A DNA stretch of 64,000 bases from NCBI GenBank assembly GCA_015063985.1, contig SVTC01000002.1, positions 67,475 through 131,474 on the forward strand, in the 5' to 3' direction. Made by a program: the position numbers and the translations under genes. Of this stretch, positions 39,386-50,350 are shown in pieces (within the stretch, counting starts at the first letter, position 1; the number at the start of each line of letters is the position of its first letter). Origin of the DNA: Oscillospiraceae bacterium (GTDB taxonomy: Bacteria > Bacillota > Clostridia > Oscillospirales > SIG627). Below the pieces are notes generated by a model. It had not been told where the DNA came from and made no database searches. It worked only from the letters and a program-made list of their open reading frames with translations.

Positions 39386-40276
39386 GTGTTTATGAATAGA
39401 TTAAAAGCTAACGTAATGCTGCTTCTTGCGGCATTTATATGGGGTACGGCTTTCGTTGCCCAGAGCGTGGGAATGGATAGCATTGGCCCGGTTTCCTTTA
39501 ACTGTGTGAGAATGTTTATAGGAAGCCTTACCTTGATCCCGGTAATTTACTTCCGCAGATTTATGGAAAAAAGAAAAAGCGGGAAAGTAGAGAAAATTGA
39601 TCTTAAAAAGCATATTATAGGCGGCGCGGCTTGCGGTGCGTTTCTTTTTCTTGCATCGGTGTCTCAGCAGATGGGCCTTGTTTTCACTACACCTGCAAAA
39701 AGCGGATTTATAACTGCTCTTTACGTTGTTCTTGTTCCTATAGTGGGTTTGTTTTTTAAGAAAAAGGTTCGTTGGAATATGTGGGTAGCGGTAGTGCTTG
39801 CCGCCGCGGGACTGTATTTTCTTTGTATTCAAGGAAGCTTTGTTCTGCAGCTTGGCGATCTTCTTACTCTTATCTGCGCCTTTATGTATACGTTCCACGT
39901 TCTTACGGTGGATCATTTTTCCCCTGAGACTGATCCTGTTATACTGAGCTGTCTGCAGTTTTTCTTTTGCTCGCTGTTTTCCTTTTGTCTTATGTTCTTT
40001 ATTGAGGAGCCCTCGGTATTGCAGATATACAATGCGGCTATACCGATTCTTTATACCGGCGTTCTTTCCAGCGGAGTTGCTTTTACCTTTCAGGTATGTG
40101 CACAAAAGCACACTTCGCCCACTGTCGCTTCCCTTCTGATGTGTCTGGAATCCGTTTTTGCGGTGCTGGCGGGTATGGTTATTCTTTCTCAAATACCCTC
40201 TCCTGCGGAGGCCTTCGGGTGCGTTCTGATGTTTGTGGCAATAGTTTTGGGGCAGATATTCCCCGAAAAGGAATAA
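39386..40276 (+). CDS. DMT/EamA family transporter
   Basis: About 10 TM; IWGTAFVAQ, SGFITALYVVLVP, LESVFA. Confidence 0.9.
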   Translation: MFMNRLKANVMLLLAAFIWGTAFVAQSVGMDSIGPVSFNCVRMFIGSLTLIPVIYFRRFMEKRKSGKVEKIDLKKHIIGGAACGAFLFLASVSQQMGLVFTTPAKSGFITALYVVLVPIVGLFFKKKVRWNMWVAVVLAAAGLYFLCIQGSFVLQLGDLLTLICAFMYTFHVLTVDHFSPETDPVILSCLQFFFCSLFSFCLMFFIEEPSVLQIYNAAIPILYTGVLSSGVAFTFQVCAQKHTSPTVASLLMCLESVFAVLAGMVILSQIPSPAEAFGCVLMFVAIVLGQIFPEKE

Positions 40277-40391
40277 AAAATAAAAGGAAGGGCTTGCGGT
40301 ACCTACCGTAAGGCAGGAAAACGCATCATCTATATTGGTGATGCGTTTTTGCTTTTCAACCTACAGTTGAAAAATCTCGTTTATGCAGTTA

Positions 40392-40420
40392 TTGTCAAAA
40401 AAAGATTGCCGTGATATAAT
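40392..40420 (+). promoter_or_regulatory. SigA-type promoter of the cassette 1 passenger gene
   Basis: TTGTCA-17 bp-TATAAT with extended -10 TG. Confidence 0.7.
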
Positions 40421-40464
40421 AAAAGCACAGGACAGGCGCCGTCTTGAAATTCGGAGGTAAATTT

Positions 40465-41256
40465 ATGAATATTGGAAACAAAATTAAAGAATTGAGAAAG
40501 CAACGCGGCATTACTCAAGAACAACTTGCAGATAGCATAGGTGTTTCCTTTCAAGCGGTTAGCAAATGGGAGAATAATATAGCTTTGCCTGATATCACGC
40601 TTGCTCCTGCTTTGGCAAGTTATTTCGGTGTATCTATGGACGTTCTTTTCGATTTCAATTTGCAGGAAATTGAAGATAAAGCATTTGCTATCGCAAAAGA
40701 AAGCTGGAAATATCGTAGCTCCGATTGGGAAAAAGCACGAAACATTATTGATGAAGGGCTGAAGACATATCCTGATAACGTTATTCTTTTGATTAACAGA
40801 CTTTATGTTATGAACAGCGAGGAAACTCCCGACGAGGTTATCACTATCGCGTTGAAAATTATTGATCTTTCCAAAGACGAAGCGATAAAATATGATGCCT
40901 GTCAATTCTTGGCGTATGCGTACAAAGCAAAAGGAGATTATGAAAGTGCGCGAAAAGCAATCGATATCATTCCCGATATTCGTTTCTCGAATCAGAGATT
41001 GAAAGCGTCCATTTTGGAAGGAAAAGAGAAATGGGATGCGGCATGTCAAGAATTTAATGAATCTTTATATGCATTTATGTTTATCACTTATAGCATGGCA
41101 GAATGTTGCAATGAAAGAGGCGAATATAAAGAAGCTTTGGAATATTATGAGAAAGCTTTACGTGTACTTGACATCTATAAAGTGAAAGAAAGCTGGTATG
41201 GTTTTCGTGAAGGGTTTAATGAAGAAATTGCAAAGATAAAAGAAAAAGCGAAATAA
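40465..41256 (+). CDS. XRE-family HTH regulator with TPR-like C-terminus
   Basis: GGAGG SD; IKELRKQRGITQEQLA...VSFQAVSKWE..PD; helical repeats (GDYESAR, GEYKEALEYYEKAL); more AT-rich than its neighbours. Confidence 0.88.
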   Translation: MNIGNKIKELRKQRGITQEQLADSIGVSFQAVSKWENNIALPDITLAPALASYFGVSMDVLFDFNLQEIEDKAFAIAKESWKYRSSDWEKARNIIDEGLKTYPDNVILLINRLYVMNSEETPDEVITIALKIIDLSKDEAIKYDACQFLAYAYKAKGDYESARKAIDIIPDIRFSNQRLKASILEGKEKWDAACQEFNESLYAFMFITYSMAECCNERGEYKEALEYYEKALRVLDIYKVKESWYGFREGFNEEIAKIKEKAK

Positions 41257-41330
41257 GATATTGCATTTGTGTCCGCAAAAGCAGTGCTTGTCAGGAAAAA
41301 CAGACAGACTTTCAGAGCGCACAAACAAAA

Positions 41331-41513
41331 GGCTCCCTCCGGGAGGGAGCTCCCGACGAAGTCGGGTGAGGGAGAGCGCGTTACAATAAAAATTGTGCTT
41401 ATTTGACAGTCACGCGGGCTCCTTCCGTCACGCTACGCAGCGAACCCCCAAAGCTCATTTCATTCGCTTCGGGGAACCCCTGCCGCGTGCCACCTTCCTC
41501 CCGGAGGAAGGCT
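41331..41513. repeat. GC-rich composite REP/MITE-like element, copy 1
   Basis: GGCTCCCTCCGGGAGGGAGC...CTTCCTCCCGGAGGAAGGCT; near-identical to 49126-49382. Confidence 0.85.
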
Positions 41514-41642
41514 ATTTTGCCGCCTGGCAGTATACCTAAGAGGTGTAACACACTATACCTTGCGTGGCAGGCATGTGAAAAGGAGTACGAACAAATCGTC
41601 CGTACTCCTTTTGTTATTTTTTCGGAAGGTGTTGCCCCCTGC

Positions 41643-41800
41643 GTGTCATCTTGAGCGGAGTCCGCCCGAGATTCCACCTTCGCTTTGCTCGGTGCTGCTT
41701 CGCAGTTCGACTACGCTACGCTTCGCTCAGAATGACACGGCGGACGCAGTCGAAACCCGAAGGGCGAACGGCAATGCCGTTCGGATCTCGCAGGGAGATT
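41643..41800. repeat. Second REP-like palindromic element
   Basis: GTGTCATCTTGAGCG...CGCTCAGAATGACAC inverted repeat plus further hairpins. Confidence 0.65.
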
Positions 41801-41848
41801 AAAACCTGCTTTATGGAAGGCACCCCTTGTCCCTTCCTTTTTTACGGT

Positions 41849-42712
41849 TTATTTTACCATAAGTGCGGAATATATCTCGCTTTTCGGAAGCTTGCGATCC
41901 TTGGCGACTGCTTTTACAGCATCCATTTTGGAAAGTCCCTGATCCAGATAGATCTGCAGGTGCTCGTCTAAGCTGATAGAGGAATAATCGTCCTTCAGTT
42001 CATCTAAAGCTGCTCCCTCAACGACCAGAACGAACTCTCCCTTGGGCTCTCTTTGGGAAAAGAGCTCTGCGGCTTCCTTTAATGAAAGGCGGATAACCTC
42101 CTCGTTGAGCTTTGTCAGCTCTCGGCAAAGTGATATTTTTCTGTCCTCGCCGAAGCTTTGCAGTAAGGAGTCAAGGGTCTTTCGCAGCCTGTGGGGCGCC
42201 TCGTAAAAGATCATTGTGCGATCCTCTGTCTTTAAAGCGTCCAAACGTTTTTTGCGCCCGGAATTATCCGTAGGCAGAAAGCCTTCAAAGCAGAATCTTG
42301 CAGTGGCAAGAGCGGACAGACTTAAGGCACACACTGCGGCGCAGGCGCCGGGAACGGCAACGACATCTATTCCCTCCATGGCGCACTTTTTAACAACGTC
42401 CTCACCGGGATCACTGATGGCGGGGGTGCCTGCATCGGTGACCAAGGCAACGCTACGCATTACTTTAAGCTCGTTTATGATCTTTTCTCCTGCCATCTTG
42501 CAGTTATGCTCGTGATAACTGATAAGAGGCTTTTTTATTTCGAAGCGATTTAATAGCTTTAAGGTTACTCGGGTATCCTCCGCGGCGATAAGATCTACGT
42601 TGGATAAAAGGCTTATCGCTCTTTGGCTGAGGTCTCCGAGATTGCCGATGGGGGTGGCGACCAGATACAGTACGCCACCCTTGGGCTCATTTGTCAGAAC
42701 TGTGCTTCCCAT
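41849..42712 (-). CDS. rsmI: 16S rRNA (cytidine1402-2'-O)-methyltransferase
   Basis: LYLVATPIGNL, AAEDTR, DAGTPAISDPG, FYEAPHR, RELTK. Confidence 0.95.
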   Translation of the reverse strand: MGSTVLTNEPKGGVLYLVATPIGNLGDLSQRAISLLSNVDLIAAEDTRVTLKLLNRFEIKKPLISYHEHNCKMAGEKIINELKVMRSVALVTDAGTPAISDPGEDVVKKCAMEGIDVVAVPGACAAVCALSLSALATARFCFEGFLPTDNSGRKKRLDALKTEDRTMIFYEAPHRLRKTLDSLLQSFGEDRKISLCRELTKLNEEVIRLSLKEAAELFSQREPKGEFVLVVEGAALDELKDDYSSISLDEHLQIYLDQGLSKMDAVKAVAKDRKLPKSEIYSALMVK

Positions 42713-48968: not shown

Positions 48969-49125
48969 GTAAGAAAAAAGAAAAAGCCGACTTTTAGAGC
49001 GTCACGCTAAAGGACAGTTTGGGGAAATACGGCATATCTCGAAAGAGGTATGCCGTGTTTTGCGTTTGTGGACACAAATGCAGTGCTTGTCAGGAAAATT
49101 GACAAGTTATAGGTGAACATAAAAA

Positions 49126-49382
49126 GGCTCCCTCCGGGAGGGAGCTCCCGACGGAGTCGGGTGAGGGAGAGCGCGTTACAATAAGGTTTATCTAAATTTA
49201 AGTCACGCAGGCTCCTTCCGTCACGCTACGCAGCGAACCCCCAAAGCTCATTTCATTCGCTTCGGGGAACCCCTGCCGTGTGCCACCGTCTCGCTACGGC
49301 TCGGTCACGCTCGGGCTCTGACACCACACCGTGGTGTCATTCACTACCCTCGCGCCGCTTCGCTACCTCCCGGAGGAAGGCT
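49126..49382. repeat. GC-rich composite REP/MITE-like element, copy 2 (with ~75-bp nested insert)
   Basis: Matches 41331-41513 except for an extra palindromic segment at ~49288-49365. Confidence 0.85.
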
Positions 49383-49426
49383 TTTTTACCTCCCGGAAGG
49401 TAATGGAATAAACTTCTCGAAATATG

Positions 49427-49455
49427 TTTACAAATCGCAAAAAATGTGATATAAT
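49427..49455 (+). promoter_or_regulatory. SigA-type promoter in cassette 2
   Basis: TTTACA-17 bp-TATAAT with extended -10 TG. Confidence 0.72.
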
Positions 49456-49461
49456 AGTTAT

Positions 49462-49675
49462 GCCAAACAAATTTAATAGTAGAATTAGCGGTATCTTTTT
49501 CTTTATGGGATAATTATACCCTTTTTTCGCCATAATCATTTTTAGAATTTGGTAAAAGCGCAAATTCCGAGTAGTGATTATGGTAGAGATACTCTAATTC
49601 TATTAAATTTGTTTGGCGACAATCGGAGTTGGCGTTTTTCGGAGCGTTGACTACGGTTGACGCTCTTTTTATTTT
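49462..49675 (+). ncRNA. Candidate structured RNA/leader (long hairpin + terminator)
   Basis: GCCAAACAAATTTAATAG pairs with CTATTAAATTTGTTTGGC; inner stems; terminator-like GAGCGTTGAC-tacg-GTTGACGCTC plus T-tract. Confidence 0.5.
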
Positions 49676-49703
49676 ATATTTATCTTTTGAAGGGAAAAAT
49701 GAG

Positions 49704-50171
49704 ATGAAAAAAATTGTATCACTTGCACTTGTTCTTAGCACGTTACTGTGTGCATTCACTTTGACTTCTTGCGGTTCGAATAAAAAAGAAGAAGTATTTT
49801 ATAATCTTGTGGACGAAACAAAGGAATTACTTGATATTGTAGCAGATGATATTTATTCATACTGGTATGATTGTATTTATGAAGATAAGTATCTTGATAA
49901 CATTTCTTATGCTGTTGCCTGTGCAAAAAGCGATAACGAAGAAAACATTAATACCATTGAGGAAAACACTACAAAAATCAAGGATCTCTACAAGGAAATA
50001 AAAGATGGAAAATTACGCTCTGAAGCAAAAGCTGTAATGCAAGCATATAATGATTACTATACTTTAATTGTTGAAGTTAGTGGCTCATTCAATTCGTATT
50101 CCGCAAGTAAAGAAACTTATAAAAAAGAACTTGCCAGCGCAATAGACGATTTTTATTTTGAGCTTAATTGA
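49704..50171 (+). CDS. Hypothetical lipoprotein (helical)
   Basis: Signal peptide MKKIVSLALV...LTSC; AT-rich codons; start ATG 49704. Confidence 0.8.
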   Translation: MKKIVSLALVLSTLLCAFTLTSCGSNKKEEVFYNLVDETKELLDIVADDIYSYWYDCIYEDKYLDNISYAVACAKSDNEENINTIEENTTKIKDLYKEIKDGKLRSEAKAVMQAYNDYYTLIVEVSGSFNSYSASKETYKKELASAIDDFYFELN

Positions 50172-50350
50172 TTATAGATTGCAAAATCGATAAGAACACT
50201 TTCTTATCCGCTTTTGATTTTGCGTCAAAACAAAAAAAGGACGAGGAATTTCAATAATTCTTCGTCCTTTTCCTGTCGGTAGGTAACATATTCTATTAAT
50301 TTTCAAAAACCGTCCTTAAGAGTACGTCCCATTTTAGTCGGCTTTTATTA

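Follow-up and report, generated by a model that had tools for sequence, protein, structure and literature searches.

A transposase-less gene cassette that splits a predicted terminator in an Oscillospiraceae bacterium is probably a mini-element moved by serine recombinases

Anatomy of cassette 1 and its locus

We analysed a 64,000-nucleotide stretch of DNA from an Oscillospiraceae bacterium (hereafter the window), which corresponds to positions 67475-131474 of contig C10 in the source genome G000 (2.24 Mb, 43 contigs, 90.7% complete). The subject of this work is an insert of 1,529 bp at 40297-41825 of the window, referred to as cassette 1; the second cassette of the window (48982-50346) is referred to as cassette 2. 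Note that G numbers denote genomes, C numbers contigs, L numbers single stretches of DNA from public records and other genomes, and X numbers metagenome samples. Cassette 1 lies between a gene for an EamA-family transporter (eamA; 39386-40276, + strand; Pfam EamA, 1.3e-35) and a gene for an RsmI-like TP_methylase (rsmI; 41849-42712, − strand; Pfam TP_methylase, 1.7e-28), and the strands of the open reading frames (ORFs) and the Pfam matches agreed with the convergent arrangement named in the original prediction. On direct reading and folding, the insert is flanked by two half-stems, AAAAGGAAGGG (40282-40292) and CCCTTCCTTTT (41831-41841), which form a perfect 11-bp stem and proved exact in every coordinate. 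The loop tetranucleotide CTTG is present at both junctions (40293-40296 and 41826-41829), and a single T (41830) separates the right copy from the right half-stem. It had been proposed that removal of the insert together with one CTTG rebuilds a terminator, and the flanks joined by coordinates indeed folded into the 11-bp stem, closed by a loop of 5 nt and with a U-tract on each strand (−15.2/−16.2 kcal/mol), a predicted bidirectional intrinsic terminator.

The left end of cassette 1 is a 21-nt inverted repeat, CGGTACCTACCGTAAGGCAGG (40297-40317, + strand; the start is possibly 40296), and the right end, read from outside in on the − strand, is GGGTGCCTTCCATAAAGCAGG (41805-41825). Recounting of the imperfect terminal repeats gave the same figure as before, namely 16 of the 21 positions paired in inverted orientation, with a binomial chance of 1e-6 to 2e-5 for one fixed pair. 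Inside each end there is a terminator-like hairpin, as had been claimed. The left one is followed by a U-tract (40318-40349, + strand, −21.4 kcal/mol) and would be a replacement terminator for eamA, the transcript of which now runs into it; the right one (41578-41612) is terminator-like on both strands (−21.6 kcal/mol on the − strand and −18.2 kcal/mol on the + strand), and folding predicts that its + strand ends the cargo transcript and its − strand faces rsmI.

Between these hairpins we confirmed a SigA-type promoter and a single AT-rich passenger gene. The promoter is near consensus (TTGTCA-17-TATAAT with an upstream TG; 40392-40420, + strand; 11/12 match), and the cargo gene (40465-41256, + strand; 36.5% GC as compared with 45.8% in the window) encodes a 263-aa regulator with an XRE-type HTH and TPRs, as examined by Pfam (HTH_3, 2.6e-18; TPR_14, 4.1e-10) and by a PDB sequence search, in which matches were to HTH and TPR only and PlcR was matched via its HTH only. 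The order of the domains, an N-terminal XRE HTH and a C-terminal TPR part, is the RRNPP-type layout; no convincing small ORF was noted for the tail of the cassette in the ORF list, in which no search was aimed at an RRNPP-type signalling-peptide gene. By every test run, the predicted product is a regulator and not a DNA-acting enzyme. It is the only family-matched ORF of the insert, so that the claimed lack of a transposase held, and ORFs and Pfam revealed no recombinase gene in 40297-41825; because cassette 1 lacks a large serine recombinase (LSR) of its own, we call it non-autonomous. An Rfam search with cassette 1 gave no match at E up to 1 save two weak, unrelated sRNA models.

The cargo gene is followed by a non-coding mosaic tail (41257-41825) that is repeated elsewhere in G000, as examined by blast. 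Specifically, the 570 bp after the gene (41261-41829) recur in contigs C3 (80% identity over 572 bp), C35 and C25 and at 49060-49290 of the window. Small palindromes occupy 41327-41349 and 41494-41516 of the tail, and a palindromic insert is nested in it at about 41630-41795; the part from about 41612 to 41800 is absent from the C35 copy and from contigs of other samples. Palindromic modules of the tail (41289-41640, for example around the two small palindromes) were hugely abundant in gut metagenome contigs, and their summed contig depth reached 3,742 in sample X1 as compared with ~7 for the flanks, so that they are taken to be common to many organisms. In addition, an inward-facing promoter-like site (TTCACA-16-TATAGT; 41552-41579, − strand; 10/12 match) lies in a right-end module that is conserved in cassettes and in elements resembling MITEs (miniature transposable elements with inverted repeats); the site falls within the most conserved stretch of the module in all elements of the end family F1, to which cassette 1 belongs. 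A transcript from the cassette 1 copy of this site would be antisense and structured and would run toward a terminator-like hairpin of the − strand (41350-41332).

Relatives of cassette 1 and the splitting of terminators

The same cassette was found in a different terminator of another bacterial family. In genome G270 (contig C21; another family of the same order), the cargo protein was 96% identical in amino acids to that of cassette 1, and the cassette DNA was 91.6% identical over 1,101 bp from the left end on. The G270 cassette has its own ends and lies, apparently between convergent ORFs, inside another terminator, of which AAAGGCAACC and GGTTGCCTTT form the perfect 10-bp stem. Its tail is shorter, and the tail is therefore modular. 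This comparison indicates that cassette 1 is mobile, as originally predicted. Other cassettes likewise recur with different flanks across genomes (the L006/L067 type and the L024/L070/L031/L250 type).

Further paired copies of the ends, which had been expected if the cassette is one of a family, were present in G000 and in many other genomes. In G000, 17 motif hits yielded 12 cassette-type ends, and five hits look like chance; the ends bound cassette 1, three MITE-like elements of 330-350 bp (C25, C31 and C42) and, at contig edges, half-cassettes with AraC-type and MerR-type regulators. We searched larger sets with an 18-nt degenerate pattern, for which the reversed pattern served as a control in the family and order sets. 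The pattern occurred in 10 of 51 genomes of the family (0 hits for the control; 0 in two same-genus genomes) and in 26 of 401 genomes of the order (50 matches; 3 hits for the control). Among 185,579 species genomes, at least 124 stretches carried it, and those listed came mostly from ruminant and other gut Clostridia, Oscillospiraceae, Acutalibacteraceae and Ruminococcus metagenome-assembled genomes (MAGs). Plasmid and phage collections gave no match to the element, and among 61 pattern hits in viral contigs one (L187) was a family member and the others were chance. The superfamily in gut Clostridia comprises MITE-like units of ~240-350 bp and one- or two-gene cassettes of 1.2-2.2 kb.

Two further arrangements of ends were observed. 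Contigs C34 (1-951) and C35 (99627-100512) of G000 overlap by 127 bp inside the AraC-type cargo gene, and their outer flanks do not pair as one terminator, which suggests that the sample may hold this cassette in at least two contexts. In G023 (C23:73984 and 74272) and in L091, left-type ends are repeated in direct orientation at a spacing of a few hundred bp (215 bp in L091), a pattern that tandem accretion at a recombination site would produce.

An unbiased search for split terminators distinguished two more types of element end in G000, F2 and F3, besides F1, which includes cassette 1 and its MITE-like relatives. Their layout is like that of F1, with a tip of 11-13 nt, a ...TAA(A/G)G... core, a T-run and often then a hairpin, and with TTG-type flanks. 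Cassette 2 (C10:116456-117820) is a 1,343-bp insert splitting an 11-bp stem (AAAAGCCGACT / AGTCGGCTTTT); its ends are of the F3 type, with the core CTAAAGGACAG / CTTAAGGACGG and a subterminal hairpin, and its cargo is a 155-aa putative lipoprotein (49704-50168). F2 elements have hairpin ends of the type GGCACACTCCGTAAGGAAGTGTGCC and were seen in G000 outside the window (C40:33932-34303, C35:96022-96382 and C10:7731-8148); those that are MITE-like (~340-400 bp) also split terminators and share an interior of GTGATAT heptamers.

The interiors of the MITE-like elements (C25:117220-117600 and C31:19500-19829 of G000; L281, i.e., G005:C18; L266, i.e., G059:C119) are arrays of 7-nt words (GTGATAT, ATGATAT or ATGATGT) with a short GC hairpin after every word, and the complementary word appears from halfway. 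In G005, a long tandem array of heptamer units follows a serine recombinase gene. Accessory binding sites and structured RNA are both possibilities for these arrays. At L051 and L064, the terminator loops hold only a solo 26-nt palindrome of the left-end type (11-nt arm, 6-nt spacer, 11-nt arm). In one of the two cases the palindrome follows a full serine recombinase gene by ~200 nt, and minimal elements or footprints are possible explanations for both.

We also scanned 17 cargo proteins with Pfam. XRE-type HTH_3 proteins, several with TPR, made up 11 of the 17 and were spread over the three end families, while AraC, MerR and S-adenosylmethionine (SAM) methyltransferase were found once each; three proteins had no Pfam match, one of which (L050) is the C-terminal part of an AraC-type cargo. 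Outside this census are the small lipoprotein of cassette 2 and a sigma-factor-like ORF. Two F3-type cassettes of G000 carry an XRE-family gene (C25:20012-21606 and C40:78281-79756, with frames of 387 and 368 aa, respectively), and regulator cargo therefore recurs across end families.

The proposal that terminator loops serve as landing sites was borne out by the flanks of the family. Perfect pairing of the two flanks over 7 bp or more (the longest helix has 19 bp), no farther than 8 nt from the junctions, was seen in 12 of 18 complete elements, as compared with 11 of 306 (3.6%) mismatched left/right flank pairs. Flanks of single ends are nearly always an A-run and a GC-rich stem, then ...TTG or ...AAG. 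Target stems often resemble the element tips (e.g., ...GCACCC-AAG beside GGGTGC...), which fits a putative recombinase that tolerates attB sites resembling attP.

The original prediction had read CTTG as a 4-bp duplication, and here the sequence at both junctions stood while the length did not. We anchored the junctions on the conserved core and, of 36 rows, dropped seven chance pairs (L170, L176, L185, L203, L206, the L047 pair and the 657-bp L061 pair), leaving 29 elements. A 2-bp duplication fits 25 of the 29, a 3-bp duplication 7 and a 4-bp duplication 4, and the dinucleotides over all 36 rows were TT (15), AA (10) and TA (3). With 2 bp, GG opens both tips and C closes both target arms, an arrangement that is symmetric around a dinucleotide that is itself asymmetric, and the AA/AA MITE-like subtype, the flanks of which seemed unrelated before, reads as a C-TT-G target entered in the other orientation. 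Serine-integrase sites are described, in passages of PMC3783163, as two partly identical half-sites on either side of a central dinucleotide at which crossover takes place, with the dinucleotide setting the orientation. Cassette 1 has the same plan, namely the same dinucleotide at both junctions and two partly identical inverted half-sites of ~20-25 bp. It is more likely that the duplication is 2 bp (TT at 40294-40295 and 41827-41828) than the 4-bp CTTG, which would then consist of TT, one conserved target base and one tip base. By analogy with these sites, the 2-bp repeat appears to be the signature of a serine-recombinase crossover at TT, with the left and right half-stems as the putative B and B' arms of attB and the left and right ends of the cassette as the putative P' and P half-sites. 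Three other readings had been entertained: a 3-bp duplication judged by eye, replaced by the 2-bp model after the junction count; an IS91-like CTTG/GAAC target, replaced by the same model; and an interpretation of the 11-6-11 left hairpin as a tyrosine-recombinase or dif-like site, dropped because its outer arm does not vary between loci.

Serine recombinase genes and rival enzymes

Ends of the same types lie beside LSR genes, which are here those with Resolvase, Recombinase, Zn_ribbon_recom and DUF4368 domains (Pfam). F1-type hairpin ends are located ~120 nt past the stop of DUF4368-containing frames at L032, L110 and L119, with three different flanks; the frame at L032 is a remnant (DUF4368, 9.3e-25). 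In G059:C134 and G359:C18, a typical F3 end with its hairpin comes 20-250 nt after a full LSR gene, and related ends follow LSR genes within the same distance in G043, G047, G009 and G023. In G059:C119, an LSR gene is followed by the GTGATAT-heptamer/hairpin array of the F1, F2 and F3 MITE-like elements of G000 (98/121 identical, E 5e-23). When the 300 nt after the stop of 22 LSR genes in relatives were compared with the non-coding parts of the G000 elements, 7 of the 22 had matches, as compared with 0/22 for the last 300 nt within the gene and 0/21 for the next 300 nt beyond. The left non-coding part of cassette 2 matches regions downstream of serine recombinase genes in G359, G059, G066 and G020, and 41261-41300 of the cassette 1 tail resembles the region downstream of such a gene in G359. 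In G000 itself, the end of a DUF4368 gene at the edge of contig C16 is followed by a superfamily-type end with an A-run/stem/TTG flank; its partner flank was not found in the assembly.

On these grounds, we consider it rather probable that cassette 1 is a non-autonomous integrative mini-element whose ends are att half-sites and which is moved in trans by an LSR using terminator hairpins as attB; the enzyme, its action in trans on cassette 1 and the role of terminators as attB are what we infer. The ends are probably att half-sites of LSR-driven elements and not the inverted repeats of an insertion sequence (IS) with a DDE transposase, which would explain why no IS family could be assigned to them. 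A larger element would supply the recombinase in trans, and the mini-element would be excised and integrated by conservative recombination of its joined ends (attP-like, P-TT-P'). The target would be a terminator hairpin, the stem halves serving as inverted B/B' arms and the loop holding the matching dinucleotide, and integration would leave the element inside the loop with a copy of the 2-bp core (here TT) on each side. The end hairpins would restore termination for both neighbours, the right one also ending the cargo transcript, and insertion would therefore be nearly neutral.

More tentatively, and with slightly less than even confidence, we suggest that a TnpX-like LSR clade in gut Clostridia may use terminator hairpins as generic, degenerate attB sites with a C-TT-G loop core. 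Such a clade may have spawned dispersed MITE-like elements and promoter-gene-terminator cassettes of 1-2 kb, mostly with regulators, which would spread between families without disturbing neighbouring genes.

Several points weigh against the LSR interpretation of cassette 1. The predicted empty-site allele was looked for in relatives and metagenome contigs and was not found at this locus; the relatives are too distant: rsmI of the same genus has only 66-69% DNA identity, rsmI in the same-genus genome G002 is followed by another gene (a 414-aa ORF, a RarA-like ATPase by eye) and not by eamA, and a metagenome scan with EamA gave only 44-45% relatives. No 40296->41826 joint was among the joints listed, and no circular junction was seen. 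In sample X9, flank depth was ~12 and depth was zero over 40353-41054, an uncovered stretch that is not proof of absence; the flank contigs of X9 stop at 40317 (+5 nt) and 41823 (−25 nt). The 2.2-Mb genome contains 204 inverted-repeat pairs with arms of at least 10 bp at 0.15-3 kb apart, so that an A-run/T-run 11-bp pair alone is not rare, and the pair was not cleanly among the best 25 inverted repeats listed for the window, one of which overlaps it; what makes it significant is that a repeated element has its ends there, a coincidence that recurs family-wide. Furthermore, 6 of the 18 complete elements have no clean split stem (some of these have imperfect stems), 4 of the 29 elements break the 2-bp rule, and 2-bp matches arise easily by chance (25.6% in a shuffled-partner control) because TT and AA dominate. 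Among the ends of the family, the left one of cassette 1 is divergent (nhmmer E 6.7). The cassette matches an LSR flank directly over only 29 nt (86%, E 2e-5), which is thin, and the link is otherwise transitive, via the right-end module shared with F1 MITE-like elements. DUF4368 was weakly enriched in genomes with the F1 pattern (7/10 as compared with 18/41), and the G000 assembly has no Recombinase-domain match and only a C-terminal DUF4368 fragment. We recovered no LSR element in full, with the halves of a split terminator at its two ends; contigs break there. Finally, the serine integrases known so far usually accept a single attB sequence.

A DDE enzyme acting in trans is the main rival. 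Cassette 1 would then be a classical mobile insertion cassette (MIC), or a relative of MITEs, with IS inverted repeats, moved by an IS30-, IS3- or IS630-like transposase encoded elsewhere that makes 2-4 bp duplications and prefers hairpin or palindromic targets, and its 16/21 inverted ends with a short flanking duplication are what such an enzyme would leave. A partial IS30-family gene does lie at a contig end of G000 (C7:52730-53340), and IS3-type elements are present in genomes carrying the ends. However, the inverted repeats of the IS30-like element are unrelated, as judged from a full copy in G143 and solo copies; the assembly of G000 had no match to rve, DDE_Tnp_1, DDE_Tnp_1_2, DDE_3 or DDE_Tnp_4; and no transposase was found in any element interior examined. 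The end motif was not near the DDE/rve genes (rve, DDE_Tnp_1) inspected in 8 other element-bearing genomes, which include the rve/DDE genes of G276, G279, G270 and G125 and the IS3-type elements of G015, G020 and G060. Thus, the expected transposase enclosed by the same ends was scanned for and not found in element interiors or beside the DDE genes examined, and ends of the same types adjoin serine recombinase genes instead; we regard this rival as unlikely. Three more copies of the IS30-type terminal repeat (~27 nt) were seen in G000 (C25:111159, C34:10438 and C36:104), one directly beside an F2 hairpin.

Rolling-circle or single-strand transposition by an HUH enzyme (IS91- or IS200/IS605-like), beside a CTTG-type tetranucleotide in hairpin loops, would account for the TTG flank at most left ends, for (A/C)AC at one MITE-like subtype and for the hairpins within the ends, and G000 has one IS200-type Y1 gene (at C20:134585). 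It is the least probable of the readings considered, since the flanking dinucleotide co-varies at both junctions (TT, AA, TA and GA), as in a true duplication, and the cassette ends are real inverted repeats. The Y1 gene (C20:134468-135010; Y1_Tnp, 1.6e-40) is single-copy, with its own hairpin ends unrelated to those of the cassettes; a Y2_Tnp search of G000 gave no match, and its control was equally silent.

The HTH cargo protein could also itself be a mobility or recruiting factor that moves the other cassettes and the MITE-like elements in trans, given that the XRE-type HTH_3 proteins of the census span three end families and that a unit of 1.4-1.6 kb with one gene and a promoter at one end has an IS-like layout. 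We consider this very unlikely, because Pfam and PDB sequence matches identify the C-terminal part as a TPR solenoid and give no sign of a nuclease or recombinase, and because the same ends also bound AraC, MerR, SAM methyltransferase, lipoprotein and unknown proteins. About as improbable is that nothing here moves at present, i.e., that cassette 1 is an old insertion fixed in the species or that the half-stems belong to two independent half-terminators. As such a state would predict, metagenome contigs of X1, X7 and X8 (three samples from different studies) run across both junctions with the cassette in place, and an empty allele was not found. Against it stand the near-identical cassette in the other terminator of G270, the absence of the ends from both same-genus genomes searched and the perfect pairing of the two halves.

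Related systems and biological meaning

The LSR interpretation places cassette 1 near known elements without making it one of them. Tn4451/Tn4453-type integrative mobilizable elements are moved by the large resolvase TnpX. Like the elements described here, they have the same recombinase domain plan at the element edge, imperfect inverted ends, an identical dinucleotide at both junctions and a circular intermediate, which for cassette 1 would be presumed. In contrast to Tn4451, cassette 1 has no recombinase and is 1.5 kb long, its family uses TT/AA and not the dinucleotide of Tn4451, and its targets are varied terminator loops. The cis-mobilizable elements (CIMEs) of streptococcal integrative and conjugative elements and pseudo staphylococcal cassette chromosome (SCC) elements lacking ccr are likewise bounded by sites of a recombinase encoded elsewhere; they use one fixed attB (a tRNA or the rlmH 3' end) and are kilobases long, whereas the elements here are dispersed over many terminators and include MITE-like forms. 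By analogy, cassette 1 appears to resemble most such non-autonomous att-flanked derivatives (CIMEs, ccr-less SCC-like elements), but miniaturised, multi-copy and aimed at terminators.

MIC231 is reportedly a mobile insertion cassette. MICs (e.g., the qnrD mic, PMC3913671) and prokaryotic MITEs (PMC10969869) likewise lack a transposase, have inverted ends and a short duplication and outnumber their autonomous partner, and MICs carry one or more passenger genes. Cassette 1 has the terminal inverted repeats, the missing transposase and the passenger gene of a MIC; in contrast to MICs, no cognate IS with the same ends was found in G000 or the 8 other element-bearing genomes inspected, the assemblies of which are incomplete, and ends of the cassette types associate with serine recombinase genes. 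Prokaryotic MITEs are ~50-500 bp according to passages of the review PMC10969869, in which terminator loops are not mentioned as targets at 12 of the 22 places that contain the word 'terminator'. With its 1,529 bp and coding sequence, cassette 1 lies outside this class, into which its non-coding relatives of 237-350 bp with the same ends fall.

Other elements that target hairpins or terminators include IS1397/ISKpn1 (loops of repetitive extragenic palindromic (REP) sequences), ISPpu9 (REPs), group IIC introns, which insert after terminators, and Tn7 (the glmS terminator). For these, as for the cassettes, extragenic hairpins and terminators are low-cost landing sites, but their enzymes (DDE, DEDD, reverse transcriptase or TnsABCD) and end structures are different, and to our knowledge none has been described with single-gene cassettes. 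Integron cassettes are likewise promoter-adjacent single-gene units handled by a site-specific recombinase at folded or palindromic sites; unlike them, the cassettes here have no attC, platform or tyrosine IntI, are dispersed in terminators and have their own promoter. In the full-text literature, with subscription journals largely outside the scope, we found no description of such elements.

If the interpretation is correct, serine recombinases, like DDE transposases, can spawn large miniature non-autonomous populations, and cassette 1 and its relatives would be the serine-recombinase counterpart of MITEs and MICs and a dispersed analogue of integron cassettes. The recombinases would accept a structural class of sites, terminator hairpins, and not one attB, which would bear on landing sites for genome engineering. 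For annotation, elements of this kind would account for the contig breaks that repeats cause in gut MAGs and for many orphan HTH genes. For the gut Clostridia, they would provide a route by which single regulator genes (XRE/TPR, AraC, MerR and sigma-like) pass between bacteria as promoter-gene-terminator units.

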